The notes beneath the pieces are model-generated. The model had not been told where the DNA came from. It worked only from the letters and a program-made list of their open reading frames with translations, and searched no databases. The translations under genes were made by a program, and so were the position numbers. Positions 2,459 through 61,538 of a stretch of 64,000 bases of DNA are shown in pieces. The stretch is from an uncultured bacterium (GTDB lineage Bacteria > Margulisbacteria > WOR-1 > CAZGTC01): positions 30,046 through 94,045 of the forward strand of contig CAZGTC010000001.1 of NCBI GenBank assembly GCA_964528395.1, written 5' to 3'. The stretch's first letter is position 1. The number at the start of each line of letters is the position of its first letter.

Positions 2459-2863
2459 ATGATAAAATTAGCTGAAATGGATCAACAATTTACCGCAACT
2501 TTACAGTCTATATTTAAGGAAAAAAAATGGGTTAAACTGGCTTTTCTTTTTGGTTCCCAATCAAAAGGGAAAAACAGGTCGGAATCGGATTTTGATATTG
2601 CTATTTGGCCAGAAGAGACCGCCAAAGACAAAGATATCAATAATTTATGGTTGGAATTAGAAGAAACGTTAAAAAAATCCGTTGATCTGGTAAACTTATC
2701 TTCAGCTGCGCCTCTGGTTGCCTGGGAAGCCTTTAAAGGGACTCCTATAGATATAAAAGATCAGCGTTTTTATATTAACAAAATGCTTGAGGTTTCTTCT
2801 GAGGCAGAGGATTTTAGTCGGTTTGTTATTGATGTTTGGAAAGCTAGAGAGGCTAAAAAATGA
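2459..2863 (+). CDS. nucleotidyltransferase-domain protein (MNT-type antitoxin)
   Basis: 134 aa; minimal NTase motif GSQSKGKNRSESDFDIAIW; ATGA overlap with the downstream HEPN gene. Confidence 0.7.
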   Translation: MIKLAEMDQQFTATLQSIFKEKKWVKLAFLFGSQSKGKNRSESDFDIAIWPEETAKDKDINNLWLELEETLKKSVDLVNLSSAAPLVAWEAFKGTPIDIKDQRFYINKMLEVSSEAEDFSRFVIDVWKAREAKK

Positions 2864-3291
2864 TTTTTAGTGAAGCAGAAAAAGGAAGCATTTTTACCAG
2901 AATTAGTTTTCTTGAATCAGAATTAAAGGATTTGAGCGAACAAAAAAATATGGATTGGAAAACTTATTTAGAAAATAAGCTGCTTCGAAAAAATGTTGAA
3001 AGAACCATTGAAAATATTGTTAATGCGCTTATTGATATCAGTAAAATTGTTTTGTCGGATAAAGCAGCAGGAGAAATTCCGCAAACTTATGGGGCTGTCA
3101 TATTAAAGCTTTCAGAGCTTAAGATAATTGAGTTTGAGCTTGCGCAACAATTAGCAGAATATGTAAAATTAAGAAATTTTTTGTCGCATCAATATTTAGA
3201 TCTTCGTTGGGATAAGATTAAGGGGTTTTTAAAGGATGCTCCGGAGTCTTTTTCTCTATTTATCCAGCAAATCAAAAAAAATATTCCATAA
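2860..3291 (+). CDS. HepT-like HEPN-domain protein (DUF86-type toxin)
   Basis: 143 aa; Rx4HxY motif (RNFLSHQY) near the C-terminus; coupled to the upstream NTase. Confidence 0.7.
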   Translation: MIFSEAEKGSIFTRISFLESELKDLSEQKNMDWKTYLENKLLRKNVERTIENIVNALIDISKIVLSDKAAGEIPQTYGAVILKLSELKIIEFELAQQLAEYVKLRNFLSHQYLDLRWDKIKGFLKDAPESFSLFIQQIKKNIP

Positions 3292-4406: not shown

Positions 4407-4963
4407 ATATTTTAGCTATATTAGGCAGTCCTCGTCGAGGCGGAAATTGTGAAAAGCTGCTGGATCAAGCTATTAAAAGTCAAAAGTCACAAGTTAAAAG
4501 TCACAAGTTAAAAGTCACAAGTTGCAAGAAAATCATTTTAAATGAATTAAATTTTCGGCCGTGCCAAGCGTGTGAAGAGATAAATCAAGACGGCACCTGC
4601 AAGATTCAAGATGATTTCAAGATCATTGAAAAAGCGGTTTTTGAGGCTGACATTATAATTTTGGCTTCACCTATTTATTTTGGTTCAATTTCTGCGCAAA
4701 CAAAAATGATGATTGACCGCTTCCAATGCCTTTGGCGAGCAAAAGAAAAGGGCCAAGTAGTCCCGCCTCTATATCATATAATAATGTTGCGGGATCCCGT
4801 ATGCGGGACAAGGGCCAAGGGCCAAAAAAAAGGATTCTTTATTTGTGTGCAGGCGGGAAATCGGACGGACTTTTTTGATAATGCCAGGGCAATCGTAAAA
4901 AACTTTTTTGCAACTATCGGCGCTTCTTACGAAAAAGAATTATTAGTCCCCAACCGAGAATAA
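4403..4963 (+). CDS. flavodoxin-like NAD(P)H-dependent FMN reductase / iron-sulfur flavoprotein family
   Basis: 186 aa; N-terminal ILGSPRRGGN and ILASPIYFGS flavodoxin-fold signatures; contains an in-frame tandem DNA repeat at ~4483-4530. Confidence 0.65.
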   Translation: MNILAILGSPRRGGNCEKLLDQAIKSQKSQVKSHKLKVTSCKKIILNELNFRPCQACEEINQDGTCKIQDDFKIIEKAVFEADIIILASPIYFGSISAQTKMMIDRFQCLWRAKEKGQVVPPLYHIIMLRDPVCGTRAKGQKKGFFICVQAGNRTDFFDNARAIVKNFFATIGASYEKELLVPNRE

Positions 4964-4977
4964 AGAAACTCTTAAAA

Positions 4978-5150
4978 GCCCTCATCCTAACTTCCCCAAA
5001 CTTGAAAGCTTTCTTTTCTGCAACCTTCTCCCACAGGAGAAGGAATGATTTTTAAACAAAAACTTATTTAGTCCCTCTCCTTTTAGGAGAGGGTTGTTTT
5101 GGAATTAGCTAACACATAAGAGATGTTGGGTGAGGTTTTAGCAGACCCAC
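4978..5150 (+). repeat. MITE-like composite intergenic repeat, copy A
   Basis: Modules ccctcatcct ... ccttctcc-caca-ggagaagg (5024-5043) ... ccctctcc-tttta-ggagaggg (5073-5093) ... gggtgagg (5128-5135); same module order as copies at 20800, 22827 and 61364. Confidence 0.6.
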
Positions 5151-5162
5151 CTAAAAAACTTC

Positions 5163-5190
5163 TTGACAATATTTTTTTGGCAAGTATAAT
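5163..5190 (+). promoter_or_regulatory. sigma70-type promoter upstream of hcp
   Basis: TTGACA (5163-5168), 16-nt spacer, TATAAT (5185-5190); RBS AAGGAGA precedes the ATG at 5234. Confidence 0.55.
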
Positions 5191-9350: not shown

Positions 9351-10226
9351 ATGAAAAACATTTTTATATTAGGGATGCTCTTTAATTTGATATTTTTAGT
9401 TAATTCGGCACTTGGACAAATGGACCATAGCGGACACCATGATCATGACCAGATGAAAAAGGAAGAAATGAAAATAGTAAAACTTTCTCCGCAGCAAATT
9501 AAACTAGCCAATGTCCAGTCAATGCCGCTGCAAAAGCATTTTTTATTTAAAGAAATCCGGGCAACCGGGCAAGTGGCCTATGATCCAGAGATGCAAATTG
9601 CGCAGCAGGAGTATTTTTCCGCGGACGAGCAGAATAAAGTATTAGTTTTGAACCGCTTAAAGCTTTTGGGAATTAGCCCGCAAGAATTAAAAAGAGGACA
9701 GCCAGATGATGCCTTGATTTTACCCGGCGAGCGGGCTTGGGTTTATGCGCATGTTTATGAATATGAAATAAACAGTATAAAAGTTGGACAGCGCGTCAAT
9801 ATTTTTGCCAGCCCAGATATAAATTTACAAGGCATCCTCCGTGCGATTGTCCCGATTTTGGAGAAAAAAACCAGGACTTATAAATTAAGAATAGAAGTAT
9901 TAAGCACGCAGAACAAATTAAATCCCAATATGTATGTTGATGCTTACATAAAAAATGATTTAGGAGTTATGCCTGCTATCCCCAAAACCGCGGTGCTTGT
10001 AACCGGAAACGAGCAGATTATTTATATCGATGAATTAAATGGCAGCTATGAAAAGAGGAATATTAAAGTAGGGCCCTTATCTTATACCATGATAAAGAAA
10101 GAAAAATATCCATATTATCCGGTTTATTCTGGAATTAATTTGGGAGAAAAAGTAGTTGTTAAAGCCAACTTTTTAATTGATTCCCAAAGCGAAATTACCG
10201 GGCCTTCAACTCCGCATGTCCATTGA
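9351..10226 (+). CDS. efflux RND periplasmic adaptor subunit
   Basis: 291 aa; signal peptide followed by His-rich stretch HSGHHDHDQM; lies between the OMP and RND pump genes. Confidence 0.75.
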   Translation: MKNIFILGMLFNLIFLVNSALGQMDHSGHHDHDQMKKEEMKIVKLSPQQIKLANVQSMPLQKHFLFKEIRATGQVAYDPEMQIAQQEYFSADEQNKVLVLNRLKLLGISPQELKRGQPDDALILPGERAWVYAHVYEYEINSIKVGQRVNIFASPDINLQGILRAIVPILEKKTRTYKLRIEVLSTQNKLNPNMYVDAYIKNDLGVMPAIPKTAVLVTGNEQIIYIDELNGSYEKRNIKVGPLSYTMIKKEKYPYYPVYSGINLGEKVVVKANFLIDSQSEITGPSTPHVH

Positions 10227-16939: not shown

Positions 16940-17485
16940 ATGATATCTTTTAAATCTAAAATAGCGGTTAAAATATTGAATTACTTCTTCTTAAATCCGC
17001 AAGAAGAACGTTATATTAACGAACTGTCAAAAATTTTAAATGTAGACGTGAAAAATCTTCATTCTAAGCTTAAGGAGCTGGAAAAAGAAGGCCTTTTAAA
17101 AAGCGAATTTCGCGGAAACCAAAGATATTTTTATCTTAATAAAGATTTTCCATTATTGGAACACTACCGCCAGATTTTCTTAAAAACATCGGGAATTGAA
17201 TATAGGTTAAAGAATATAATTAAAAAGATAAAAGGAATGAAAAATGCTTATCTCTTTGGTTCCTATGCACAAAATACGATGGAAACCGAAAGTGATATAG
17301 ACTTGTTGGCAATTGGAGACCATTCTGTTTTAGAATTACAAAAAAAAATAGCTAAACTTCAGCATGAAATTAGTCGGGAGATAAATGTTGTTAATATGAG
17401 CGAAAAAGAGTATTTAGAAAAAAAGAAAAAGAAAGATCAGTTTGTTTTAAATATTTTTAAAGATAAAGTAATTAATTTATTATGA
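16940..17485 (+). CDS. HTH plus nucleotidyltransferase-domain protein
   Basis: 181 aa; NTase motif LFGSYAQNTMETESDIDLLAI; ATGA overlap with downstream HEPN gene. Confidence 0.7.
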   Translation: MISFKSKIAVKILNYFFLNPQEERYINELSKILNVDVKNLHSKLKELEKEGLLKSEFRGNQRYFYLNKDFPLLEHYRQIFLKTSGIEYRLKNIIKKIKGMKNAYLFGSYAQNTMETESDIDLLAIGDHSVLELQKKIAKLQHEISREINVVNMSEKEYLEKKKKKDQFVLNIFKDKVINLL

Positions 17486-17889
17486 TAAAGTTTGATAAAG
17501 ATTATTTTCAAAAAATAGAATTTTCACAAAAGCAGCTAGAACAGTTTTTAGATTCAGCTAAAAGAGATTTAATTATTGCTAAGCAATCTGATGTTCCGGA
17601 GGTAGTTTTTAAGTTTGCTTATGATGCTCTCTTGAAATTAGGCATATATGTGATTGCTAAACGCGGCTACAAAGTTAAGGCCCGTAGCGGACATCATGTA
17701 AAAATACTAGAAAAATTAGCTCAAATATTAAAGAATGACGACGTTTTTGTTTTAGGAAATAAAATGAGGCAGGATCGTAACTTAGGACTTTATTCTGGCG
17801 GAAGTCCTGCAACAGAAAAAGAATCTGATGAGTATTTAACATTTGTTGAAAAAGTTTTTTCTGATATTTTGGACAAAGGAGTTTTATGA
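17482..17889 (+). CDS. HEPN-domain protein
   Basis: 135 aa, helical; classic NTase-HEPN gene pairing with translational coupling. Confidence 0.6.
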   Translation: MIKFDKDYFQKIEFSQKQLEQFLDSAKRDLIIAKQSDVPEVVFKFAYDALLKLGIYVIAKRGYKVKARSGHHVKILEKLAQILKNDDVFVLGNKMRQDRNLGLYSGGSPATEKESDEYLTFVEKVFSDILDKGVL

Positions 17890-18800
17890 GTTTAATAAAA
17901 GACTTAATTATTATTGGGGGAGGGCCGGCGGGAATCACGGCGGCAATCTATGCAGCCCGCAAGCGCTTGAATTTTTGCCTGCTGACGCGGGAAGTGGGGG
18001 GGCAGACTGCTTGGACCAGCAATGTAGAAAATTACACCGGCTACCAAATTATTTCCGGGCCGGATCTGGTGAAAAAATTCTACGACCAGCTAAAAACTTA
18101 TAAAATTGATCTGCGAGAAGGGCAAGAGGTTAAGTCCGTTGGAAAGAATGCTGGTATTTTTACAGTAAAAACTGCAAAAGACGAGGAGCTTCAAACTAAG
18201 ACGATTGTACTGGCTTCGGGCAAATATCCTCGGCGCTTGGGAGTTCCAGGAGAAGCCAAATTTAGCAATAAAGGGGTAGCCATCTGCGCAACTTGCGATG
18301 GCCCGATGTTTGCGGATAAAAATGTGGCGATTATCGGCGGCGGCAATTCCGCCCTGGATGCAGCTTTACAAATGATAAAGATTGCTGCAAAAGTCTATTT
18401 GATTACAGTAAATGATGATTTGAAGGGCGATCCAGTAATGATAGAAAAAGTAAAAACTGCAGAAAATATGGAAATTTTAACCAAAACGAAAACATTGGAA
18501 ATCTTAGGAGATAAGTTTGTTAAAGCCATAAAAATTGAAGAAAAAGGCGGAATTAGAGACTTAGTGGTTGAGGGAATTTTTGTGGAAATTGGCCTTGTGC
18601 CTAATGCGAAATTTATTGATTTTTTGGAAAAAAATGATCAGGGTGAAATTATCGTAAATTGTTTTATGGAAACTTCGGAACCTGGGATTTTTGCAGCTGG
18701 AGATGTTACACAAGTACCGGATAAGCAGATTATTATTGCAGCTGGGGACGGAGCCAAGGCGTGTTTGAGAGCCTTTCGTTACTTGTCAACGCATAGATAA
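17886..18800 (+). CDS. trxB: thioredoxin-disulfide reductase-like FAD/NAD(P) oxidoreductase
   Basis: 304 aa; GGGPAG FAD motif, redox CATCDG, second GGGNSA NAD(P) motif. Confidence 0.75.
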   Translation: MSLIKDLIIIGGGPAGITAAIYAARKRLNFCLLTREVGGQTAWTSNVENYTGYQIISGPDLVKKFYDQLKTYKIDLREGQEVKSVGKNAGIFTVKTAKDEELQTKTIVLASGKYPRRLGVPGEAKFSNKGVAICATCDGPMFADKNVAIIGGGNSALDAALQMIKIAAKVYLITVNDDLKGDPVMIEKVKTAENMEILTKTKTLEILGDKFVKAIKIEEKGGIRDLVVEGIFVEIGLVPNAKFIDFLEKNDQGEIIVNCFMETSEPGIFAAGDVTQVPDKQIIIAAGDGAKACLRAFRYLSTHR

Positions 18801-18837
18801 AGTAATAAGAAATAAGTAGTAAGGAATAAGAATAAAA

Positions 18838-19584
18838 ATGATACTCTGGCTTTATACTCTGGTTGCAGTTTTGATTGTCAGCTTATTTTCTTTAATTGGA
18901 ATTTTCACCGTAGTTTTTCGGATCAAAGACCTAAAAAATATCCTGCTTTTTCTGGTGAGCTTATCTGCAGGGACTCTTTTGGGCGGGGCTTTTTTACATC
19001 TCATTCCAGAAGCTGCGGAAAACGGTTTTTCTCTGGGAGTAAGTTTAAACATTTTATCCGGGATTATGGTTTTTTTCATCTTAGAAAAAATTATTTGCTG
19101 GCGGCATTGCCATATCCCCACCTCCAAAACCCATCCCCATCCTTTGGCTGCCATGAATTTGGTGGGGGATGCTTTTCATAATTTTTTAGATGGCACCATT
19201 ATTGCCGGGAGTTTTCTAGTCAGTATTCCTTTGGGTATAAGTACGACTTTGGCCGTGGTTTTGCACGAGATTCCTCAAGAAATCGGGGATTTCGGGGTGT
19301 TGGTGCATAGCGGCTATAGCCGATTAAAGGCTTTGATGATGAATTTTATGGTAGCCTTAACTTCTGTGGCCGGAGCAGTTGGGGTTTTGCTTTTGAGTTC
19401 TCAATTCCAAAAAATTTCTTCTTTTTTGGTGCCTTTTACAGCTGGGGCGTTTATTTATATCGCGGCTTCGGATCTAATTCCAGAATTAAAGCTTAATACC
19501 CAGGCAAAGCATTCGCTAGTCCAGCTTATAGTGTTGGTGTTTGGCATGGGGCTGATGGGCCTGCTTTTGCTGTTAGGGCACTAG
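18838..19584 (+). CDS. ZIP-family metal cation transporter
   Basis: 248 aa; multi-TM; HEIPQEIGDFGVL signature. Confidence 0.8.
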   Translation: MILWLYTLVAVLIVSLFSLIGIFTVVFRIKDLKNILLFLVSLSAGTLLGGAFLHLIPEAAENGFSLGVSLNILSGIMVFFILEKIICWRHCHIPTSKTHPHPLAAMNLVGDAFHNFLDGTIIAGSFLVSIPLGISTTLAVVLHEIPQEIGDFGVLVHSGYSRLKALMMNFMVALTSVAGAVGVLLLSSQFQKISSFLVPFTAGAFIYIAASDLIPELKLNTQAKHSLVQLIVLVFGMGLMGLLLLLGH

Positions 19585-20541: not shown

Positions 20542-20752
20542 ACAGGGTAATGGAATTAGCGGCGATAATCGGCAGAGATTTTAAGATCAAGCCGTAGGTG
20601 GTCCACAAAATTAAGCCTGCAAAAAGCATAATCAGCATGGCCAAAGACAGGTCTTTTGTGTGCTTAGTTTGATAAACTTTAATTGCTTGCGGCAGAAAAG
20701 CAGCGGTGGTCAAAATAGCAGCCAGAGATCCGATATAAAATGTAATTTCCAT
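20498..20752 (-). CDS. SemiSWEET / PQ-loop family transporter
   Basis: ~84 aa from internal ATG (MEITFYIGS...); three TM helices with LPQAIKVYQTK motif. Confidence 0.6.
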   Translation of the reverse strand: MEITFYIGSLAAILTTAAFLPQAIKVYQTKHTKDLSLAMLIMLFAGLILWTTYGLILKSLPIIAANSITLFIDFYLICAKIRYK

Positions 20753-20799: not shown

Positions 20800-20987
20800 C
20801 CTCACCCAAACCTCACCCTAATCTTTCTTATATGTTAGCGAATTCTAAAACTACCCTCTCCTAAAAGGAGAGGGATTATCTATTTTTCGCTCAAAATTAA
20901 ATCCTTCTCCTGTGGGAGAAGCCTGCCTGCCGGTAGGCAGGGTTGCATGCGAAAAGATTGCTAATAACGAGTAATCAGGATGAGGGT
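20800..20987 (-). repeat. MITE-like composite intergenic repeat, copy B (inverted relative to copy A)
   Basis: cctcaccc ... ccctctcc-taaaa-ggagaggg (20854-20874) ... ccttctcc-tgtggg-agaag (20903-20921) + inserted cctgcctgccggtaggcagg (20922-20941) ... aggatgagg. Confidence 0.6.
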
Positions 20988-22769: not shown

Positions 22770-22826
22770 TTTTTATATCAAAGGGAGCTTTGTTTGAAAA
22801 AGGCAAAGCTCTCTTTGTTTTATGAC

Positions 22827-22988
22827 CCTCACCCCTACCCCTCTCCCTCGCTACGCTGGGAGAGGGACATTTTGTTATTCGTTGGGTTATAATATGAAAA
22901 TACAAATTTTAGGAGATCCTTCTCCTGAGGGAGAAGGCGGCATAAGATAAATCTTCAAGTTTGAAGGAGTTAGGATGAGGGCAAATCA
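22827..22988 (-). repeat. MITE-like composite intergenic repeat, copy C; terminus overlaps priA RBS and start codon
   Basis: cctcaccc, ccctctcc-ctcgctacgctg-ggagaggg, ccttctcc-tgag-ggagaagg, then gaaggagttaggATGagggcaaatca; the rc of copy D ends in the same taggatgagggcaaatca. Confidence 0.6.
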
Positions 22989-28952: not shown

Positions 28953-30059
28953 TTAATTTTCCTTTCTATTGCTTTTTTTTGGTTCTTCTTTTTTGCTTTT
29001 TTCCTTTTCATCATCATCATTTTTTTCTTTTTCTTCTTCTTCTGAAACATCGTTTATTTTTTTAGGCTTTTGCTCTTTGATGTGTTTTTTGACCTTGTCC
29101 AAAATTTCGCTGAATAGGGTTGGATTTTCTTCTAAATATTTTTGCGCGTTTTCCAGTCCCTGCCCGATCTTTTTTCCTTCGTAGGAGTACCAGGCCCCGA
29201 CTTTTTCAATGAAGTTCAAATTTGATGCAACCTCTACCAAGTCAACATATTTGGAAATGCCTTCCCCGTATTTAAGGAGGAATTCCGCGCTTTTAAAGGG
29301 CGGGGCAACCTTGTTTTTTACCACTTTTACATTTACCCGCGCCCCAATAATCAGGGTGCCTTCGCGGATTTTTTCAATCGGCCTAACTTCCAACCTGACA
29401 GAAGAATAAAATTTTAGCGCCCGGCCTCCAGGGGTGATTTCGGGGTTGCCGAACATGATCCCGACTTTTTCCCTTAATTGGTTGACGAATACTACGATGC
29501 TTTTGGATTTATTAACTACAGCAGTTAATTTCCTCAAGGCTTGTGACATGAGCCGGGCTTGCAAACCGATCCTGGCTTCGCCCATTTCGCCTTCAATTTC
29601 AGCCTTGGGAACCAGTGCTGCCACAGAGTCAATAACAATAATATCAATGGCTCCAGAGCGCACCAGGGTCTCGGTAATTTCCAATGCTTGTTCCCCGTAA
29701 TCTGGCTGGGAAATCAAGAGGTCATCAATATTTACTCCCAATTTGCTGGCATAAACCGGGTCCATTGAATGTTCCGCATCAATAAAAGCAGCTGTGCCCC
29801 CGCTTCTTTGCACTTCAGCAATAGCGAGCAGCGTGACCGTTGTTTTTCCTCCAGCCTCGGGTCCAAAAATCTCAACGATTCTTCCGCGCGGCAGCCCGCC
29901 TACTCCCAATGCTAAATCCAGGGACAAGCAGCCAGTTGAAACAGCTTCGACCTTCATTTTTGAAGCTTCGCCCATTTTCATGATCGAACCTTTACCCCAA
30001 TTTTTTTCAATTTGCGATATAGCCAAGCCCAAAGCTTTATTTTTTTGATCAGTTACCAT
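28953..30059 (-). CDS. recA: recombinase RecA with extended charged C-terminal tail
   Basis: 368 aa; Walker [10 protein letters not shown] and canonical RecA core; long Lys/Glu-rich tail. Confidence 0.95.
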
Positions 30060-30121
30060 GATTCATTTTCCTCCTTTAATAATTAACAAGTCATAAGTTA
30101 TGAGTTATAAGTTATAGGTTA

Positions 30122-30673
30122 TTAGTTAATTTTCCCTCCTAAATTGAGCCAGAGAAAACCGAGAGCTGTTTGTGCGGCATTTTCTCTTATTTCGCTGCGG
30201 CTGCCGTTCAGGTGCAGTTCTTTAGCCTGCGTGCCTTTTTCGTTTGAAAAAGCTATAAATACTGTTCCTGGCTGCGCCCTTAAGAGCGGGTCAGGACCAG
30301 CCGCGCCGGTAGCAGACAAGCCAAGATTGGTTTTGAACCTTTGGCGGATGCCTTCAGCCATGGCAACCGCGGTTTCGCGGCTGACCGGGCCGAATTTCGA
30401 GATCACAGCTGGGGGAACATTGGCTTCCATAATTTTTATGCGGTTGTGATAGCAGACCGCACTGCCGATAAAATATTCCGAGGCCCCGGGAGGCGAAGAT
30501 AAGCGGCTAGAAATCATCCCGCCGGTCAAAGATTCAGCCACAGCAATGGTTAAATTATCATGGATTAAAATATCTGCAATTTGCTGGTCGGTAATTTTTC
30601 CGATAATTGACAGCATTTGGTCAAAAAAGGTTTCTAATTTTATTTCCGTTGTTTTTATTTTTTCTTCAGCCAT
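30122..30673 (-). CDS. pncC: CinA-family nicotinamide-nucleotide amidohydrolase domain protein
   Basis: 183 aa; AVAESLTGGMISSRL and SATGAAGPD motifs. Confidence 0.8.
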   Translation of the reverse strand: MAEEKIKTTEIKLETFFDQMLSIIGKITDQQIADILIHDNLTIAVAESLTGGMISSRLSSPPGASEYFIGSAVCYHNRIKIMEANVPPAVISKFGPVSRETAVAMAEGIRQRFKTNLGLSATGAAGPDPLLRAQPGTVFIAFSNEKGTQAKELHLNGSRSEIRENAAQTALGFLWLNLGGKIN

Positions 30674-31163: not shown

Positions 31164-32473
31164 GTAACCGGTCGGGCGAGAAGGTCATAAGGCAAGGCAG
31201 CTAGAACCTTGGCTTTTATGATTTCTCCTGGGTTTATTTTTTTGCCAGTTATTATAACCGAACCATCGATTTCTGGAGCATCCATATATGACCGGCCCAC
31301 GCTGCCTTTAGGAGTGACTTTATCTATTAAAACTTCGATTATTTTCCCGATCATTTTCTTGTTTTTCTCTTCTGAAACCGATTTTTGTAAACTCATTAAG
31401 GTTCTTAATCTTTTTCTCTTTAATGGAGCTGGAACCTGTCCCCTCATCTTATTTGCCAGCGTGCCAGCTTCTCGAGAATATTCAAAAACACCCAATCTTT
31501 CAAACTTCGTCTCTTTAACAAAATTAAAAAGTTCTTCAAAATCTTTTTGCGTTTCCCCTGGGAACCCGACAATTAAAGAAGTCCGAAGAACTATGCCTGG
31601 TATTTCCCTCCTAATTTTTTGAATGAGCCGGATGAGCTTATTTTTGGGCGTTTTACGGCCCATTTTCGATAAAATGTTATCACATATATGCTGGATTGGC
31701 AAGTCAAGATACTTAACGATTTTCTTCTCTTTTGCCATGATTTTTATCAATTCCGGGGTAATATGTTTGGGGTGGGTGTACATGATGCGGATCCATTTTA
31801 TGGCTGGGATTTGGCAAGTTTTTCGCAGTAATTCAACAAATTTTGGATGCTGGGTCGTGTCTTGGGCAACAAAAATGATTTCTTTTACCCCTTGTTTAGC
31901 TAATTGTTTTACTTCAGCGATGACATCGACTAATGGCCGGCTATGATAATTCCCGCGGATTGAGGGAATTAAACAATAAGAACAGCGGTTATTGCACCCA
32001 TCCGCGATTTTGACATAGGCAGTGTGGGGTGGGGTAAGTTTTAAACGCGGAATATTATGAGAAAATAGTATGGCTCCGGACTTAGCTTGGGATTTAGTAA
32101 TTGGGATTTTATTTGGATTTTGGATTTTGACATTGGGATTTTTTAGGAGGTCTAATATCTGTTCTAATTGATTACACCCTAGCCAAACATCAATTTCTTT
32201 TAGAGGAGGTTTTTTTTCACGCTTGGGCAGGCAGCCGATAACTGCCAAAATTTTACAACAGCCGGTTTTTTTGTATTGGCTGTATTTTTTTATGGTTTGA
32301 ATGGATTCTGCAACCGAAGATTTTAAAAATGCGCAAGTATTGATGAGAATAATTTCTGCGAGCTTAGGATTTGTGGTTAAACTAAAACCATTGGTCAATA
32401 ATATTCCCAAAACTGCTTCAGAATCAGTTAGGTTTTTTGGGCAACCCAGGCTTAAAAGATAGATTAAGTTCAC
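31160..32473 (-). CDS. rimO: ribosomal protein S12 methylthiotransferase
   Basis: 437 aa; SLGCPKNLTDSE, radical-SAM CNNRCSYC, C-terminal TRAM; GTG start overlapping doc stop (GTGA); in-frame repeat-derived segment at ~32095-32160. Confidence 0.8.
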   Translation of the reverse strand: MNLIYLLSLGCPKNLTDSEAVLGILLTNGFSLTTNPKLAEIILINTCAFLKSSVAESIQTIKKYSQYKKTGCCKILAVIGCLPKREKKPPLKEIDVWLGCNQLEQILDLLKNPNVKIQNPNKIPITKSQAKSGAILFSHNIPRLKLTPPHTAYVKIADGCNNRCSYCLIPSIRGNYHSRPLVDVIAEVKQLAKQGVKEIIFVAQDTTQHPKFVELLRKTCQIPAIKWIRIMYTHPKHITPELIKIMAKEKKIVKYLDLPIQHICDNILSKMGRKTPKNKLIRLIQKIRREIPGIVLRTSLIVGFPGETQKDFEELFNFVKETKFERLGVFEYSREAGTLANKMRGQVPAPLKRKRLRTLMSLQKSVSEEKNKKMIGKIIEVLIDKVTPKGSVGRSYMDAPEIDGSVIITGKKINPGEIIKAKVLAALPYDLLARPVT

Positions 32474-32862
32474 GCAAGTATAATTCTTTCAATTATCCAT
32501 TGTTTTATTTTTTGGAAGGCTAGTTTGTTTTGGGCGATATTAATTACAAAATCTACAATTTCTCTGTCTTTAAATTCCCAAATATACCAGTTTTCTACTA
32601 AAAATAATTTTGTCAATATTGCTGCGGTTCTTTTATTACCATCGACGAAAGGATGTAGCCTAATAATACCTTCTAATAGAGCAGCTGCTTTATCAAATAA
32701 ATCCGGAAAGAATTCTATCCCATTGGATAGGCCTGTAAATGGTTTATTGAGGGCAGCATCTAGAGATTCTACGCTTATTAATCCTTTTAATCCTCCAAAT
32801 TCTTCGATGATTTTATCGTGTAAATCAATTACTTTTTCTAGCTTCAGAAATTCCTTTTTCAT
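32470..32862 (-). CDS. doc: Doc-family (Fic/Doc) toxin
   Basis: 130 aa; HPFVDGNKRTA matches the Doc motif HxFx(D/N)GNKR. Confidence 0.75.
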   Translation of the reverse strand: MKKEFLKLEKVIDLHDKIIEEFGGLKGLISVESLDAALNKPFTGLSNGIEFFPDLFDKAAALLEGIIRLHPFVDGNKRTAAILTKLFLVENWYIWEFKDREIVDFVINIAQNKLAFQKIKQWIIERIILA

Positions 32863-33942: not shown

Positions 33943-34695
33943 ATGCAGCATAGGCATACTAATTGGAATAAAGTGGCAAAATGGTACGATGGCTTAGTGG
34001 GAGAAAAAGGTTCGAACTTTCACCAGTCAATAATTTTCCCGCGGGTTTTGGATATTCTGAAAAATAAAAAAGCCAAAAAAGTCCTGGATATTGCCTGTGG
34101 CCAAGGGGCTTTTTGCCGCCAATTATTTAAGGAGGGGTTTTCTGCAACGGGCGTAGATGCTGCGGAAAACCTCATTCGCTTAGCTCGGCAAAGAACTCCT
34201 AAAGCAGACTATTTTGTGGCAGCTGCGGATAAAATGATAAATTTAAAATCCCAATCTTTTGATGCTGCGGTTTGCATCTTGGCGATCCAAAATATGGATC
34301 CGATTGAGCCGGTTTTTCAAGAGATAAAGAGAGTTTTAAAACCCGGAGGATCTTTTCTTCTGGTCATGAATCACCCCTGCTTCCGCATTCCCCGGCAGAG
34401 CGGGTGGGGGATTGACGAAAAAAGGAAGCTGCAGTACCGCCGCATCGACAGTTACCTTTCTCCCCAGAAAATTCCCATAAGGATGCATCCCGGGGCGGAT
34501 CCAAAAACCATGACGATCAGCTTTCACCGGCCGCTAGAAAATTATTTTAAGGCTTTGGCTGGGGCGGGGTTTTGCGTGGAGAATTTGGAAGAATGGAGTT
34601 CGCACCGCCAGAGTTTGGCTGGCAAAACCAAAAAAATGGAAGATCGCGCTCGAGATGAAATCCCGCTGTTTTTAATGATTAGTGCAAGACTATAA
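33943..34695 (+). CDS. class I SAM-dependent methyltransferase
   Basis: Motif I VLDIACGQGAF; start set at the first ATG (the track start at 33925 is GTG). Confidence 0.75.
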   Translation: MQHRHTNWNKVAKWYDGLVGEKGSNFHQSIIFPRVLDILKNKKAKKVLDIACGQGAFCRQLFKEGFSATGVDAAENLIRLARQRTPKADYFVAAADKMINLKSQSFDAAVCILAIQNMDPIEPVFQEIKRVLKPGGSFLLVMNHPCFRIPRQSGWGIDEKRKLQYRRIDSYLSPQKIPIRMHPGADPKTMTISFHRPLENYFKALAGAGFCVENLEEWSSHRQSLAGKTKKMEDRARDEIPLFLMISARL

Positions 34696-34781
34696 TGAAG
34701 TAATAAGCAATAAGAAATAAGTAATAAGAAAAAGATTATTTTACATCGATTTTTGGGCTGACGAAGAGAAGAATAAATATA

Positions 34782-36513: not shown

Positions 36514-36644
36514 AGCTTTTTTCCTTCTTTTTTCTTATTTCTTGTTACTTATTTCTTAAATATTGCGAAAGACAAGGGGGACTTATTAAGAAACAAGTAA
36601 TAAGCAATAAGTAGCAAGAAAAATATTGCTTTCGCAATATTTTA

Positions 36645-36760: not shown

Positions 36761-37687
36761 ATGCTTAATCTAAAAGATAAAATTATTGAACTAAAGAAGA
36801 AAAAAAACGCTGTAATTTTGGCGCATAACTACCAGAATCCAGAGATCCAAGATATTGCGGATTTTACCGGGGATTCTCTCGGTCTTTCGATCAAAGCTTC
36901 TAAAACTAAGGCTGATATTATTTTGTTTTGCGGCGTGCATTTTATGGCAGAAACCGCGGTGCTTGCTTCCCCTTCTAAAAAAGTCATTCTCCCAGATATA
37001 ACTGCCGGATGCCCTATGGCAGATATGATCACCGCAGATGATCTGCGCAAGCTCAAAATCCAAAACCTGCCTGCCGACAGGCACGGTCCAAAATCCAAAG
37101 TAGTTTGCTATGTAAATAGTTCGGCCGAAGTTAAAGCAGAATCTGATATTTGCTGCACCTCGGCCAATTCAGTTGATGTAGTTAATTCGATCAAAGATAC
37201 TGATGAAATAATTTTTGTGCCGGATAAATATTTGGGGATGTATACGCAGAGCAAATGTCCGGATAAAAAATTTATTTTATGGAATGGTTATTGTCCCACC
37301 CACGCTAGAATTTTGCCGGAATATTTAGAAGTAGCAAAGGCCAATCATCCCAAGGCTAAGGTTTTGGTTCATCCGGAATGCCGGCCGGAAGTTATTGCGC
37401 AAGCAGACGAAGTTTTATCCACTGGAGGTATGATAAAATTTGTCCAAAAAGCAGAAGCAAAAGAATTTATTATTGCGACAGAGATCAATATGCTTTATGC
37501 TTTGAAAAAAATTGCCCCGGATAAAATTTTCTATCCAGCCACAGAACTTGCCACTTGTCCGAATATGCGAAAAATTACCCTGGAAAAAGTCATCTGGTCG
37601 CTGGAAGAAGAAAAAACAATTGTTACTGTCCCGCAGGAAATAGCTGTCAGGGCTAAAAGAGCAGTTGACGCAATGCTGAGCATATAA
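36761..37687 (+). CDS. nadA: quinolinate synthase
   Basis: ILAHNYQ, DIADFTGDSL, CPMA, YVNS, CTSAN, HPEC blocks; start set at ATG 36761 (track start is GTG). Confidence 0.85.
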   Translation: MLNLKDKIIELKKKKNAVILAHNYQNPEIQDIADFTGDSLGLSIKASKTKADIILFCGVHFMAETAVLASPSKKVILPDITAGCPMADMITADDLRKLKIQNLPADRHGPKSKVVCYVNSSAEVKAESDICCTSANSVDVVNSIKDTDEIIFVPDKYLGMYTQSKCPDKKFILWNGYCPTHARILPEYLEVAKANHPKAKVLVHPECRPEVIAQADEVLSTGGMIKFVQKAEAKEFIIATEINMLYALKKIAPDKIFYPATELATCPNMRKITLEKVIWSLEEEKTIVTVPQEIAVRAKRAVDAMLSI

Positions 37688-48143: not shown

Positions 48144-51100
48144 TTAATTTTCTCCTCTAGCCTCGAGTAATCGGTTTATCTCGGCGGATATGTTTAATAT
48201 TGTCTTGATTTCCGATTTTATTTGAGAAGGGATTTTTTCTTCTTTATCATAGGAATAAAGAATGTTTTTAATGGTTAATTCTACATAAAGTTGAGTATCG
48301 ATAACATATGCTGTTAATTTAGGATTTGCTGCAATGTTTCTCACGGCTTCTATTTGAGAATATAAAGCAGAAAGTAAATTTAATATTTTTTCCAGAGTTA
48401 AATTTTGCGGATCTGCCAGATAGGTTAGAGCTTTATTAAGAGATATTTCTGGGTTATCGTTGATTAAATCATTGGTTGTAGTTGGCGGCAGGGGTGGTGG
48501 AGCAAGGGGTTGTGGAGCTGGTTTTGATGCTTCTTCTGCTTGTTTTCTTTCTAATTCTTCTAGTTTTTGTTCTACGCTTGGTAAATTTTTTGATACACCC
48601 CTGTGTGTTTTAAGTATTTTCTGTAGATATTCTAGGGCAATTCGGCAGTTTTTTACCTCATTTGTTTGCGGCAATGTTTCAAGCTGCGTTAAAAAATCTA
48701 TTCGTTTCATCCAAAACGCTGCAGCGGAGAATATAAGGTCGTGCGGAAGATTGGATTCTGCTTCTATGGCTCTCAAGTGTCCGCTCAAAGTTGCCATAGG
48801 GCTGTTTATTAAATCATTTGCTTGTAGCGCTTGAATTCTAATTTTAATTTCTTCAATAGAAGTCGAAGGCAACCTCAAAGATGCTGCTGGAGGTGCTGGA
48901 GTAGGTGCTGGAGGTGGGGTTTTTTCTTGACCCTTGACCCTTGCTACTTGTTTCTCTTGTTTTGCGGATGGAGTTTGTGGTGAGGTGAAGGGTTTTTCTT
49001 TAGGAGGCAGAAAATTGGCGGGTTCTACAAGAGCTGGCGCTGGTGCAGGGGGGGGAGGTGTGTGTAACAAGGAATCAGCAGCAGCATTGATACCTTCTTG
49101 AGAATAGGCTCGACCTGTTTCTCTTGATGAACCAATGAGTTCTTGTAATTTGGCATTAATTCTAGATAAATTATCCATAACGTTTTGTTTATTTTCTTGT
49201 AAATCTGCTTGCTCGGGAGCAATAGAGATAGCTGCTGTTTTGCGATAAATTTTTTCATAAATAGCAGCATATTGATTAGCTGCGTTAATATCGTTGGGAT
49301 TATTGGAATCAAGTGGAGAAATTATAGGCAATAGAAGATTAACTAGCTCTTCTAGTATTTTTATTGAAAGAATATCTTTTCTTTTTTCTCTTGATTCAAA
49401 GAAAGATATGAAGGCTTGGCATATATGGAAAGGAGTTTGGGCTTTTGTTAAATTAATAGTTAATAAAGAAATATCTCTTTTATCTGTTTTTGTTCTTATT
49501 TTATCATCAAAAATGCCAATAACTTCTTGAAGATTTTTAGGGAAATTTGCTCCCAAATGTTCAGTTTTCTTTTCTAATAAAGTATAAATATTTATAAAAA
49601 TTTCTAATGTTTCAAAAGGAGCCGAAGATATTTTTTGGATGGCGATTTTGTATAAGGAAATCGCAAGATTTACTTTTAAATTTTCCGCCAAATCCTCACG
49701 AATAATCCTCTCAATTTCTTCTGGTGCAGCCGCGGCCATGGCCTGCAAATGATGTTTTTCTAAAGTCGCGAGTTTGATTTCACTTCTTTGTCTTAATCCT
49801 TCATATTGATTTTTTATTGATTCTGGAGCGCGGTCAAATTTCCCCCATACAAAAACTGCGGCTTCGGTTATTTGTCCTGCGGCGCGGGCTTGTTCATGGG
49901 GGAAGGCGCGGTCAAAAGCCTTCGAATACTCCCCGACAATAGCCTCGATCCAGGCGGGGTTATAGGATAAGAGCTGGTAAGAAATATTTTGGAGGTCTTC
50001 AAGAGTTTTTGCTAAATCAATGGAATGAGGATTGCTAAATATGTTTTGATTGAATTGGGCAGAAAAATTTTGTAATTGCTCTCTTTCTTTTTTTCTTGTT
50101 TCTTCAACAAAAGCGTCTAATTCCTCTATATTTTGTGGAATCTGTAGATTGCTTTCCTCTTGATTTGATTGTTTTAAATCTAATAGTCTTTTAACCCCAG
50201 TATTACTTTGATTGGCATGTTGCCGGGCATATTGCAAGGTGCCTTTTTTTGGGCTGATAAGTCCGGGAAAAGCTGCTTCCAGCGCTTGTACGTCTTCTCT
50301 TGAAGGGACATATTGAGAGGCACATAAAAAATCAAGCAAGGCAGGAGTTCCCAAGCGAAAGATCCCTTCGCAATCGAGGAACATCAATTGTAAAGCGCGG
50401 GTTTTTAATGCTATCGCAGTTTCTCCTTGTAAATCTAATGCTGCCAATATGAGGCCGAACAATTCGATGTTTTTGCATTTAATAATAGCTAAAGTGGCAT
50501 TATAAATTAAGTCTTTTTGCGCAGGACTTAGGTTTTCTTCTTGCGCCAGGATAGAAACCGCACGAGGGAATTCAATGGCAACATCGGTTACGTCAATGCC
50601 GTTTTTTAGGGGCTGTAAATTATTTTTTATTTCTTTTTCATTTTTTCCATCTGCCTCAAGCCCTTCAATGATCTGCAACTGGCGCAGGGCTATATATAGA
50701 GGTTTTTTAGCTAAGTCTTGATAAACTATTTTTACTATGGCATTTAAAGAGTTTAATTTTTGGTCGTTAAATAGGTTGAATAGTAAGTGGTGTAATCCTG
50801 CGTAAGACTGGTCAACATCCTCTTCTATTTTAGTTTCTTTGGCATTAGCTAAGCGCAATAAAAAAAATAGTTCAAAAAGCTCGTTCATCTGCTGAAAACA
50901 TGTATTTTGGTCTAAAGGATTTAGCGAGTTTTGGATTTTAAAAGCCTCTCTTAAGGCAATATGTTTTAGCGTGATTACCTGGTTGTCTGCAGTATCCATG
51001 ATTATTTCTTTATGTTCAAAAATTTGCGTAACATATAAGCAGTTCATGGCAGTTTTGTAGAAGAGCAATGAAATATCCCTTAATTCTTTTTTGGATGGGA

Positions 51101-52796: not shown

Positions 52797-53006
52797 AAAA
52801 CAATTTCCTCCTATAAAAATTAATTAAAAATTTCCAATTTCAAATGACAAACAAGGAAGAATAATTAATATTAATACATTGTTTGACATTTTTAATTGCC
52901 TGCCTGCCGGCAAGGCAGGGTCATTTGTCATTATACTTGTATCGGCAAAACAATGGCAAGATTTCAGTTTGGGGAAAATATTTTATGAGGGTTGGGCGTT
53001 TTTATG

Positions 53007-53774: not shown

Positions 53775-54554
53775 ATGGAAAAAATATGGATTAAGCGTCT
53801 TGAGGAAGATTTTTCTTTTTATGAAAAAGAAATAACCGGTAAATATTTTGACCTTATAAAAAATAAAAAAAGGATGCCCGTTGAAAGGATTTTAGCATCC
53901 GCAGAAAAAAATAAAAGCTATGACATATACCATTCTACAACAATTGAAGGGTATCAAATAACAGAAAAGGAAGTCGAAAATGTCTTATTGGGTAAAATAC
54001 CCCTCAAAGGCAAAGAAAGTGATAGCTTAAGGAATAAGCTGGCGATTTTGGGGCATTCTTTAGCTTTTGATTTTGTTATAAAAATGGTAAAAAAGCACTT
54101 TGATAAAATTAGAATAAGCGAAGAATTAATTTTGGATATTTATTTTCAGCTTTTTAAGCCATCCGCAGATGCTGAAATACTGGATAAATTTTCTTTAACC
54201 GGATATCGTAAAGTCCCGGTTTATATACGCGGAAGCCGTTTTGTCCCCCCAGCCTATGAAAAACTGGCGGATTTAATGAAGTCTTTTATACAACAAAGCA
54301 ATCTTATTAAGCAGCCTATTATAAAAGCCATTCTTTGCCATTACTTTTTGGTTACAATCCATCCTTTTATTGATGGCAATGGCAGATCTGCGAGGCTTTT
54401 GATGAATTGTATTTTAGCTGGAAATGGATATAAATGGATAACTATCAGTGCAAATGAGAGGGAAAAATATTTTGAAAGCTTAAAAATTGGCCAATTAGAA
54501 AACAATATATTGCCTTTTGCAGATTTTATTCTTTCTTTTTATGCCCCGCGCTAA
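53775..54554 (+). CDS. Fic-family protein (class II, with N-terminal inhibitory motif)
   Basis: 259 aa; Fic motif HPFIDGNGRSAR; upstream STTIEG matches the (S/T)xxxE(G/N) inhibitory helix. Confidence 0.8.
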   Translation: MEKIWIKRLEEDFSFYEKEITGKYFDLIKNKKRMPVERILASAEKNKSYDIYHSTTIEGYQITEKEVENVLLGKIPLKGKESDSLRNKLAILGHSLAFDFVIKMVKKHFDKIRISEELILDIYFQLFKPSADAEILDKFSLTGYRKVPVYIRGSRFVPPAYEKLADLMKSFIQQSNLIKQPIIKAILCHYFLVTIHPFIDGNGRSARLLMNCILAGNGYKWITISANEREKYFESLKIGQLENNILPFADFILSFYAPR

Positions 54555-61363: not shown

Positions 61364-61538
61364 TGATTTGCCCTCATCCTAGCTACTTTAAATTTGAGAA
61401 TTATTCTTATGCAACCTTCTCCCTCAGGAGAAGGATATAATTTTATGCGAAGATCAATTAACCCCTCTCCCAGTGTAACGCGGGAGAGGGTAGCATGAGA
61501 ACAGTAGGCATCTTAGAAAAATTTGGGTGAGGGTGAGG
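61364..61538 (+). repeat. MITE-like composite intergenic repeat, copy D
   Basis: tgatttgccctcatcct ... ccttctcc-ctca-ggagaagg ... ccctctcc-cagtgtaacgcg-ggagaggg ... gggtgagggtgagg. Confidence 0.6.

Follow-up and report, generated by a model that had tools for sequence, protein, structure and literature searches.

The stretch of DNA analysed here (hereafter the window) comprises 64 kb of an uncultured WOR-1 bacterium, positions 30,046 to 94,045 of contig CAZGTC010000001.1 (assembly GCA_964528395.1). It has a GC content of ~39% and contains exactly four copies of a dispersed composite repeat of ~160–190 bp with conserved, GC-rich hairpins. All four share one module order: GCCCTCATCC, a spacer, hairpin 1 (CCTTCTCC-loop-GGAGAAGG), an AT-rich centre, hairpin 2 (CCCTCTCC-loop-GGAGAGGG), a second spacer and GGGTGAGG. 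Both hairpins, with homopyrimidine and homopurine arms, occur in every copy, the first stem of copy 2 being interrupted. An initial annotation, made from the letters of the sequence, had described four copies with a common order of modules, and this was borne out. The pattern CCTTCTCC-N-GGAGAAGG has three matches in the window and CCCTCTCC-N-GGAGAGGG has four, every one inside the elements, and neither occurs in 100 shuffles; all six occurrences of GGGTGAGG (expected, 0.78) also fall inside them. A wider copy count had been proposed, and over the window and 4.2 kb of additional upstream sequence an nhmmer profile of the four copies found those four alone, with no partial copies in the window (--max setting) and no further copies upstream.

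A MAFFT alignment of the four copies shows all stems and termini to be invariant, in keeping with the identical stems first described, except that the first stem of copy 2 reads GCTTCTCC, with one mismatch. The reported variability of the loops was overstated, the minus-strand copies having been listed unreversed. When all copies are oriented alike, the hairpin 1 loops are CACA, CACA, CTCA and CTCA, and those of hairpin 2 are TTTTA, TTTTA and two related 12-mers, so that some variation stands. Two copies lie on the plus strand and two on the minus strand, all four are inverted pairs and all are located between genes. Copies 1, 2 and 4 are intergenic, as had been stated for every copy; copy 3 has an 8-nt overlap with the start of priA, the ATG of which (22975) falls within the copy's end, GGATGAGGGC.

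The ends of these elements follow a mirror rule. Read backwards, the neighboring purine arm GGAGAGGG gives the right terminus, GGGTGAGG, provided that an A may stand as A or T. On the left, the same operation on purine arm GGAGAAGG gives GGATGAGG, the complement of the terminus there. This relation is the code of an antiparallel purine-motif intrastrand triplex (G*GC, A*AT, T*AT). A custom finder for perfect 8-nt Y/R/H triplets (pyrimidine arm, purine arm and third strand) was run on the whole window. Its matches were confined to the four elements, where seven of eight half-sites qualified, and 30 block-shuffles gave none. The eighth half-site, interrupted in copy 2, becomes perfect after removal of a nested insertion. 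The termini had been called near-inverted repeats of each other, and the outer ends do pair over 10 bp with one T.G, but they are not transposon ends, as each mirrors the adjacent purine arm. Moreover, the T in CCCTCATCC that makes the termini only near-inverted is the base that the left GGAGAAGG stem requires under the triplex rule. Triplex third strands account for the termini better than terminal inverted repeats of the transposase type do, and each element is a pair of inverted triplex motifs with the third strands outermost, forming an imperfect palindrome.

In seven of eight half-sites, 34–36 nt separate the purine arm from its third strand; in the remaining one, on the right of copy 3, the gap is 4 nt. 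Loop 1 is either 4–5 nt or 12 nt. The AT-rich spacers contain weak palindromes only, and these are not conserved. In several half-sites TTA adjoins the third strand, which would fit insertion into an ancestral type-A (TTA-loop) motif.

Since the AAG/GAG difference between stems within the window could be a single inherited change, evidence was sought outside it. In a metagenome-assembled genome (MAG) of Saganbacteria (L025), two solo motifs with a homologous 19-nt spacer read CCTTCTCC/GGAGAAGG/GGATGAGG and CCCTCTCC/GGAGAGGG/GGGTGAGG. A second Saganbacteria MAG (GCA_026387795.1; L019) carries at 9777–9986 a pair whose two stems are of the GAG type and whose third strands each read GGGTGAGG, the left terminus being CCTCACCC rather than CCTCATCC. 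Its spacers are 33 and 32 nt long, and their similarity to the window spacers is at shuffle level.

We also scanned IMG/VR viral contigs for single GAG-type motifs, which gave at least 120 loci (L028–L147; 1.09 Mb tabulated). Single triplex motifs are common on these contigs classed as viral, with up to 5 motifs in 3–7 kb. Every homopyrimidine/homopurine hairpin was compared with the third-strand rule of every stem type, its own third strand being counted within 48 nt, and all of the following refers to the matches listed. Purine arm GGAGAAGG occurs in 28 hairpins, 13 with a third strand of their own rule and 3 with one of the GAG rule. The corresponding numbers are 7 (GGGTGGGG) and 2 among 17 hairpins with arm GGGGAGGG, and 12 (AGGGGAGG or AGGGGTGG) and 1 among 26 with arm GGAGGGGA. 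When AGGGGAGG is itself the purine arm, its own third strand is GGTGGGGA or GGAGGGGT. At least five purine arms (GGAGAGGG, GGAGAAGG, GGGGAGGG, GGAGGGGA and AGGGGAGG) come with their own mirror third strand, and the table is strongly diagonal, cross-matches between stem types being rare. The commonest length of loop 2 is 3 nt (133 of 264 motifs); lengths tail off to ~30 nt, with few longer, and long loop 2 sequences often carry a GC hairpin of their own. As the scan ascertained only the GAG type, the other types are independent evidence that a third strand tracks its own stem. No mode of replication known to us produces mirror repeats, which leaves selection for Hoogsteen pairing as the only rationale available. 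The co-variation of third strand with stem suggests that the triplex-forming relation itself, beyond the hairpin alone, is under selection.

How do these elements relate to repeats described elsewhere? We scanned 185,579 species genomes for hairpin 1 followed 20–50 nt on by the 5′ arm of hairpin 2, a query that does not include the outer third strands. Eleven loci were found: five contigs of one Anaerolineae MAG, one locus each in Fibrobacterota, Spirochaetota and Oscillospiraceae MAGs and in an unclassified MAG (L009), and one each in Nostoc sp. ATCC 43529 and Buttiauxella izardii. All but L009, where no triplex site was found, have a complete triplex unit beside at least one of the two hairpins (10 of 11 loci). 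Spacers in these loci are mostly 2–3 nt, and 7–17 nt in three (L006, L007 and L008). The nhmmer profile built from the window matches the Nostoc locus (L004; E = 1e-11), the Buttiauxella locus (L010; 1.3e-9) and an E. coli locus (L012; 1.6e-3). A BLAST search with the Buttiauxella copy gave matches in 2,691 of 5,426 complete E. coli genomes; every match lies in intergenic DNA that carries no annotation, one such place being downstream of phnP.

Over the 33-nt consensus span, one of these E. coli copies is identical to TMECO no. 1 (Table 1 of PMC4666352). TMECO, formerly BoxC or PIT, is defined by the motif CCCTCNCCC-N3-6-GGGNGAGGG-N3-GGGNGAGGG (Holder et al., 2015; PMC4666352). A strict regular expression for this consensus has three matches in L012 and one in a second E. 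coli locus (L013), in agreement with the consensus, and none in the window; the window sites also lie outside the published short-loop limits (ITxF, 1–6 nt; Hoyne et al., 0–10 nt). As single-stranded DNA, TMECO forms a stable triplex in vitro, assigned as such and not as a G-quadruplex by circular dichroism (CD) and nuclear magnetic resonance (NMR), and a purine-motif triplex cannot form in RNA (PMC4666352). TMECO is intergenic and without strand bias, occurs as inverted pairs at five MG1655 sites and accompanies local insertion/deletion instability, in which palindromic pairs may lose their inner parts; in 2015 it was reported to be unassociated with phages or plasmids (PMC4666352).

Judged by their sequence organization, the four repeats appear to be a long-spacer, paired variant of BoxC/PIT/TMECO and a lineage-specific form of it. 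In both kinds, a single strand carries a C/T arm, a purine arm and, as third strand, the G/A/T mirror of the latter; both have CCCTCTCC/GGAGAGGG/GGGTGAGG as their core and are intergenic without strand bias, with inverted pairs whose third strands are outermost and with insertion/deletion instability. They differ in that the TMECO spacer is 3 nt, compared with 32–36 nt here, and TMECO stems are at least 9 nt, compared with 8 nt. Also unlike TMECO, the left unit of the window elements is the GGAGAAGG/GGATGAGG variant, and all four copies are pairs with homologous, family-specific spacers. Whereas TMECO is known from proteobacteria and cyanobacteria, the host here is a relative of Saganbacteria/Margulisiibacteriota with ~39% GC. 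Metagenome scanning for the long-spacer pattern returned a single 1.4-kb contig (L014) with spacers of 34 and 36 nt, and in the window, L014 and L019 together the spacers are 32–36 nt, except in the right half of copy 3. Since the L019 spacers resemble those of the window only at shuffle level, spacer length appears to be conserved and spacer sequence not. With H-DNA and other mirror-repeat triplexes, the elements have in common the homopurine mirror relation, purine-motif Hoogsteen logic and genetic instability. In the window elements, however, the duplex comes from a hairpin of the same strand (an intrastrand class II triplex), whereas H-DNA leaves half of a duplex mirror repeat unpaired.

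Two side observations concern relatives outside the window. In the Anaerolineae MAG (JALHOR01; L001, L003, L005, L008 and L011), the triplex pair sits inside a larger repeat with outer inverted flanks GTAACTACTCAG ... CTGAGTAGTTAC; L003 has a ~25-nt direct repeat on either side, and L008 and L011 have a ~50-nt insertion in the right hairpin. In addition, CGCTACGC recurs in hairpin loops across lineages: in the copy 3 loop CTCGCTACGCTG (22843–22854), in a 38-nt loop of L019 (9829–9860) and in the Oscillospiraceae locus L006 (GTCGGCTACGCCG).

Table 1. Positions of the repeat modules and of other features in the window
Copy or group	Feature	Sequence	Position	Remark
Copy 1	Whole element, refined boundaries		4978–5135	+ strand
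Copy 1	Left terminus	GCCCTCATCC	4978–4987	Complement of left third strand GGATGAGGGC
Copy 1	Left spacer			36 nt
Copy 1	Hairpin 1	CCTTCTCC-CACA-GGAGAAGG	5024–5043	
Copy 1	Centre			29 nt, AT-rich
Copy 1	Hairpin 2	CCCTCTCC-TTTTA-GGAGAGGG	5073–5093	
Copy 1	Right spacer			34 nt
Copy 1	Third strand	GGGTGAGG	5128–5135	
Copy 2	Whole element, refined boundaries		20800–20986	− strand
Copy 2	Left terminus	CCCTCATCC	20978–20986	− strand
Copy 2	Hairpin 1		20903–20922	One mismatch
Copy 2	Hairpin 2		20854–20874	Followed by 35-nt spacer
Copy 2	Third strand, two occurrences	GGGTGAGG	20811–20818, 20800–20807	
Copy 3	Whole element, refined boundaries		22826–22982	− strand
Copy 3	Third strand	GGGGTGAGGG	22826–22835	Merely 4 nt from hairpin 2
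Copy 3	Hairpin 2		22839–22866	12-nt loop
Copy 3	Centre			51 nt, with TATAAT
Copy 3	Promoter-like site		22864–22893	+ strand
Copy 3	Hairpin 1		22918–22937	Followed by 35-nt spacer containing AAGGAG
Copy 3	Terminus	GGATGAGGGC	22973–22982	Contains priA ATG (22975)
Copy 4	Whole element, refined boundaries		61370–61538	+ strand
Copy 4	Left terminus	GCCCTCATCC	61370–61379	Followed by 35-nt spacer
Copy 4	Hairpin 1		61415–61434	Followed by 28-nt centre
Copy 4	Hairpin 2		61463–61490	12-nt loop, followed by 34-nt spacer
Copy 4	Third strands, overlapping	GGGTGAGGGTGAGG	61525–61538	
Other	20–21-nt hairpin modules	CCTGCCTGCCGG(T/C)AGGCAGG	20922–20941, ~37066–37086, ~52898–52919	
Other	7-nt-period tandem arrays	AAGTNNN, TAATAAG, TTTGGAT, CTTGACC	2154–2186, 4475–4523, 4805–4825, 18800–18839, 30088–30128	
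Other	Further 7-nt-period arrays		32100–32129, 34693–34731, 36525–36621, 48926–48943	
Other	MNT-HEPN-type gene pairs		2459–3291, 16940–17889	
Other	Fic-domain genes		32470–32862, 53775–54554	

The copies differ in their gene context (Table 1). Copy 1 lies 3′ of an FMN-reductase gene (stop at 4963) and 5′ of hcp, and between it and hcp there is a perfect sigma-70-like promoter (TTGACA-16-TATAAT, 5163–5190). Copy 2 occupies a divergent intergenic region upstream of a minus-strand SemiSWEET (PQ-loop) gene (ATG at 20752). Copy 3 is found between priA and a gene with its own strong canonical terminator (22779–22817), and copy 4 begins 7 nt past the stop codon of a PMT-family glycosyltransferase gene, with a secretin gene downstream. 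The best named homologues of PriA (44%–45% identity) and of the PMT glycosyltransferase (46%–48%) are from Candidatus Saganbacteria, WOR-1 and Margulisiibacteriota. The idea that the elements are promoter cassettes was discarded, as a consensus scan detected no promoter in the 34–36-nt spacers and the only sites are in the centre of copy 3 and outside copy 1.

Could the hairpins instead act in RNA, as Rho-independent terminators or 3′-end stabilizers of upstream genes that have spread because they are useful in a low-GC host? Copies 1 and 4 are directly 3′ of genes in sense orientation, with no other terminator visible there, and the consensus scan flagged both hairpins of copy 1, and one or two in the other copies, as terminator-like, with T-rich tracts after the stem. 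However, the T-tracts are interrupted, copies 2 and 3 are not sense-downstream of a gene, and copy 3 is preceded by a separate and much stronger canonical terminator, the one at 22779–22817. A terminator would also leave the third strands, and the way they covary with the stems, without a role, and E. coli PIT elements lack terminator activity (PMC4666352). We therefore regard this explanation as improbable.

At priA, an element appears to have supplied the signals for translation. In the window and in a related locus whose PriA is 85% identical (L017), priA is called from an ATG inside GGATGAGGGC (window 22961–22982; L017 1273–1294), 5 nt after an AAGGAG Shine-Dalgarno sequence in the element spacer. 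Other PriA proteins begin MFAEV..., compared with MRANQKFAKV in the window and MRADQNFAKV in L017, and no in-frame alternative start is present in either. From the sequence, priA appears to have taken over the end of the element as its ribosome-binding site and translation start. A paired element also lies directly upstream of priA in L019 (PriA 44% identical), and four other Margulisiibacteriota loci have none there; a general association of the element with priA was set aside, the L019 case being probably a coincidence.

The priA region of L017 also provides the one orthologous site that was compared, and it bears on how the elements turn over. Of the element, this locus retains both third-strand termini (CCCTCACCC and GAAGGAGTTAGGATGAGGGC) and the central spacer, TATAAT included; both hairpins are absent. 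Element modules are gained and lost by insertion and deletion between relatives, and the L017 pattern matches the “palindrome effect” reported for E. coli. A comparison of filled and empty sites had been proposed; it yielded this internal change but no clean empty site in the single comparison at priA, and searches with Hcp and PMT returned no orthologue above 68% and 48% identity, respectively.

Within the window, left spacers of different copies are 56%–75% identical, and right spacers are 77% identical between copies 1 and 2, 63% between copies 2 and 4 and 52%, which is shuffle level, between copies 1 and 4. Left and right spacers compared with each other are at shuffle level (50 ± 5%). Since left spacers are homologous to one another, as are right spacers, and left are unlike right, the composite spreads as a whole. 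A 40,687-bp contig of the Logan short-read assembly starts within copy 2 and ends within copy 4. In copy 2, a 20-nt hairpin, CCTGCCTGCCGGTAGGCAGG, is nested exactly at the junction of hairpin 1 and spacer (20922–20941), and its removal restores GCAACCTTCTCC, as in copies 1 and 4. It is one of three such 20–21-nt modules in the window (Table 1); the module at ~37066–37086 is in frame within nadA, flanked by AAAATCCAAA repeats, and that at ~52898–52919 is intergenic. By its sequence, the module looks like a very small insertion element.

Other repeats and genes of the window deserve mention here. Short tandem arrays with a 7-nt period are scattered through it (Table 1), two of which (4475–4523 and 4805–4825) sit within the FMN-reductase open reading frame (ORF) and leave the reading frame intact; the arrays resemble the short tandemly repeated repetitive (STRR) heptamer repeats of cyanobacteria. 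The window also contains two toxin-antitoxin-like gene pairs of the nucleotidyltransferase/HepT-like (MNT-HEPN) type and two Fic-domain genes.

Propagation as a unit raises the possibility that the repeat is a non-autonomous mobile element, either a miniature inverted-repeat transposable element (MITE), as the initial annotation suggested, or an element like the REPINs formed from repetitive extragenic palindromic (REP) sequences. The termini and hairpins would then be sites for a transposase encoded elsewhere, such as a single-stranded-DNA Y1/HUH enzyme, and the triplex potential would be either recognized by it or incidental. The multi-copy composite and the assembly breaks at its copies fit this explanation, as do the REPIN-like imperfect palindrome formed by the whole element, the small hairpin precisely nested in copy 2 and the abundance of single motifs on viral contigs. 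The distribution is also patchy with bursts, as in the Anaerolineae MAG with its at least five copies on five contigs and extra inverted flanks. However, when the flanks of the four copies were compared for target-site duplications, a check that had been proposed, no shared direct repeat was found at any of them, and Pfam annotation of the ~60 ORFs of the window revealed no transposase, integrase or RAYT (REP-associated Y1 transposase). The sole orthologous comparison revealed internal module loss and not excision. The termini, alike across phyla, follow the mirror rule of the adjoining stem, which ends co-evolving with a transposase would not predict. Further, a pattern scan for the exact pair gave no matches in viral contigs, and on plasmids the pair is rare (27 records, for the most part megaplasmids). 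The proposal of a mobile miniature element is not supported by these results, and we consider it unlikely.

MITEs and the window elements are alike in being <200 bp, multi-copy and intergenic, with near-inverted termini and copies that may carry regulatory signals; they differ in that the window elements have no target-site duplications, no related insertion sequence or transposase in the window and termini that follow the mirror rule. REP sequences are both species- and RAYT-specific, whereas the core of the window elements is common to several phyla. Likenesses to REPINs are the two inverted structured units with a spacer, the long imperfect hairpin, intergenic dispersal and the absence of target-site duplications; unlike REPINs, the elements have no RAYT gene in the 64-kb window, and their units are triplex motifs and not REP palindromes. 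REPINs are reportedly inverted REP doublets mobilized by RAYT, a description said to go back to Bertels and Rainey in 2011.

An alternative is that the repeat functions as a structured non-coding or cis-regulatory RNA, in which an outer helix, GCCCUCAUCC/GGGUGAGGGC with one G.U, encloses the two hairpins. When folded against shuffles, copy 1 has a z of −4.25 as DNA and, as RNA, of −4.8 for the given strand and −5.2 for the opposite strand. The stability of the given strand would be expected of such an RNA, and the single T.G in the paired termini is a wobble only in RNA of this strand. However, the opposite strand folds at least as well, the copies have mixed orientation to transcription (two sense, two not), and the stems are invariant and so lend no covariation support. 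Only two tRNAs in the window reach the Rfam gathering score, and a relaxed threshold applied to copy 1 and to E. coli copies gives sub-threshold, miRNA-like noise on both strands. The wobble T is exactly what the triplex requires of the GGAGAAGG stem, and where the left stem is GAG-type, in L019, the terminus is CCTCACCC. Selection on an RNA structure, one of the options raised at the outset, thus found no support in Rfam matches, orientation bias or stem covariation within the window elements, and we judge it very improbable.

It has also to be considered whether the purine arm and third strand, which together supply four G-tracts, constitute a G-quadruplex element. The canonical GGGAGAGGG-TTA-GGGTGAGGG and the right half of copy 3 (GGGAGAGGGGTAGGGGTGAGGG) do fit the G3N1-7 rule, but in seven of the eight window half-sites the GG/GGG tracts are split by a 34–36-nt spacer and do not fit. 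A complementary C-rich arm that would compete is always present, and for TMECO the CD and NMR data of Holder et al. led to a triplex assignment (PMC4666352). We give this explanation almost no weight. A literature search for GGGTGAGGG returned telomere-primer papers only.

The reading that best accounts for these observations, and that we consider probable, is that the four repeats are paired triplex units of the BoxC/PIT/TMECO class: a structure-forming, unstable repeat that acts at the level of DNA and is occasionally co-opted. Several points weigh against it. On either strand the entire element can fold into a single long hairpin (z −4.3 to −5.2), the two ends are complementary over 10 bp with one T.G, and in the minimum-energy RNA folds of copy 1 the arms of hairpin 1 pair with those of hairpin 2 to give one long imperfect palindrome, so that a cruciform or long-stem form is predicted to compete with two separate triplex arms. 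Spacers of 34–36 nt would be expected to raise the entropic cost of folding back the third strand, and the triplex is here predicted from a sequence rule. The AAG/GAG difference within the window elements may be one inherited event and not repeated covariation. In E. coli, the TMECO triplex was undetected in vivo by dimethyl sulfate (DMS) footprinting, and earlier work found PITs to be without promoter, terminator or replication effect (PMC4666352). Finally, the near-identity of sequence across phyla, including the loop C[A/T]CA, is more than triplex chemistry by itself explains.

If the elements are BoxC/PIT/TMECO-class units, how might they act? The mode of action that we infer from the sequence rule and the published E. 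coli work is that the element functions as DNA and not as RNA, at times when replication, repair or transcription leaves one strand exposed. Each arm would then fold into a hairpin capped by its own third strand, and the folded structure could impede polymerases and favor slippage or template switching, which would explain the local turnover by insertion and deletion. The element would persist as an essentially selfish or neutral repeat, of which single copies may be secondarily co-opted: copy 3 as the Shine-Dalgarno sequence and start codon of priA, and copies 1 and 4 possibly as terminator-like hairpins.

A wider and distinctly speculative idea, which we think has only a small chance of being correct, is that pairs of triplex motifs are a pan-bacterial class of non-autonomous mobile DNA. 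In this scenario, the hairpin-plus-third-strand fold of single-stranded DNA would be the structure recognized by a mobilizing or copying machinery, and the Saganbacteria type would be a distinct active subfamily. If true, this would account for near-identical cores in at least seven phyla, for bursts of copies in single genomes and on viral contigs, and for the conservation of spacer length without that of spacer sequence.

BoxC/PIT/TMECO repeats have been on record since the 1990s, and the work on BoxC and PIT is said to include studies by Bachellier et al. in the 1990s and by Hoyne et al. in 2000 and 2002; the value of our findings is incremental. As published definitions allow spacers of 1–10 nt, compared with 32–36 nt here, censuses based on them under-count sites of this kind. 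The elements would add a new lineage to those known to carry BoxC/PIT/TMECO, a relative of Saganbacteria/Margulisiibacteriota, which are the sister group of Cyanobacteria, themselves rich in these motifs. They also offer a worked example of turnover and co-option, in which modules are gained and lost between relatives and the end of an element appears to serve as the start of priA.

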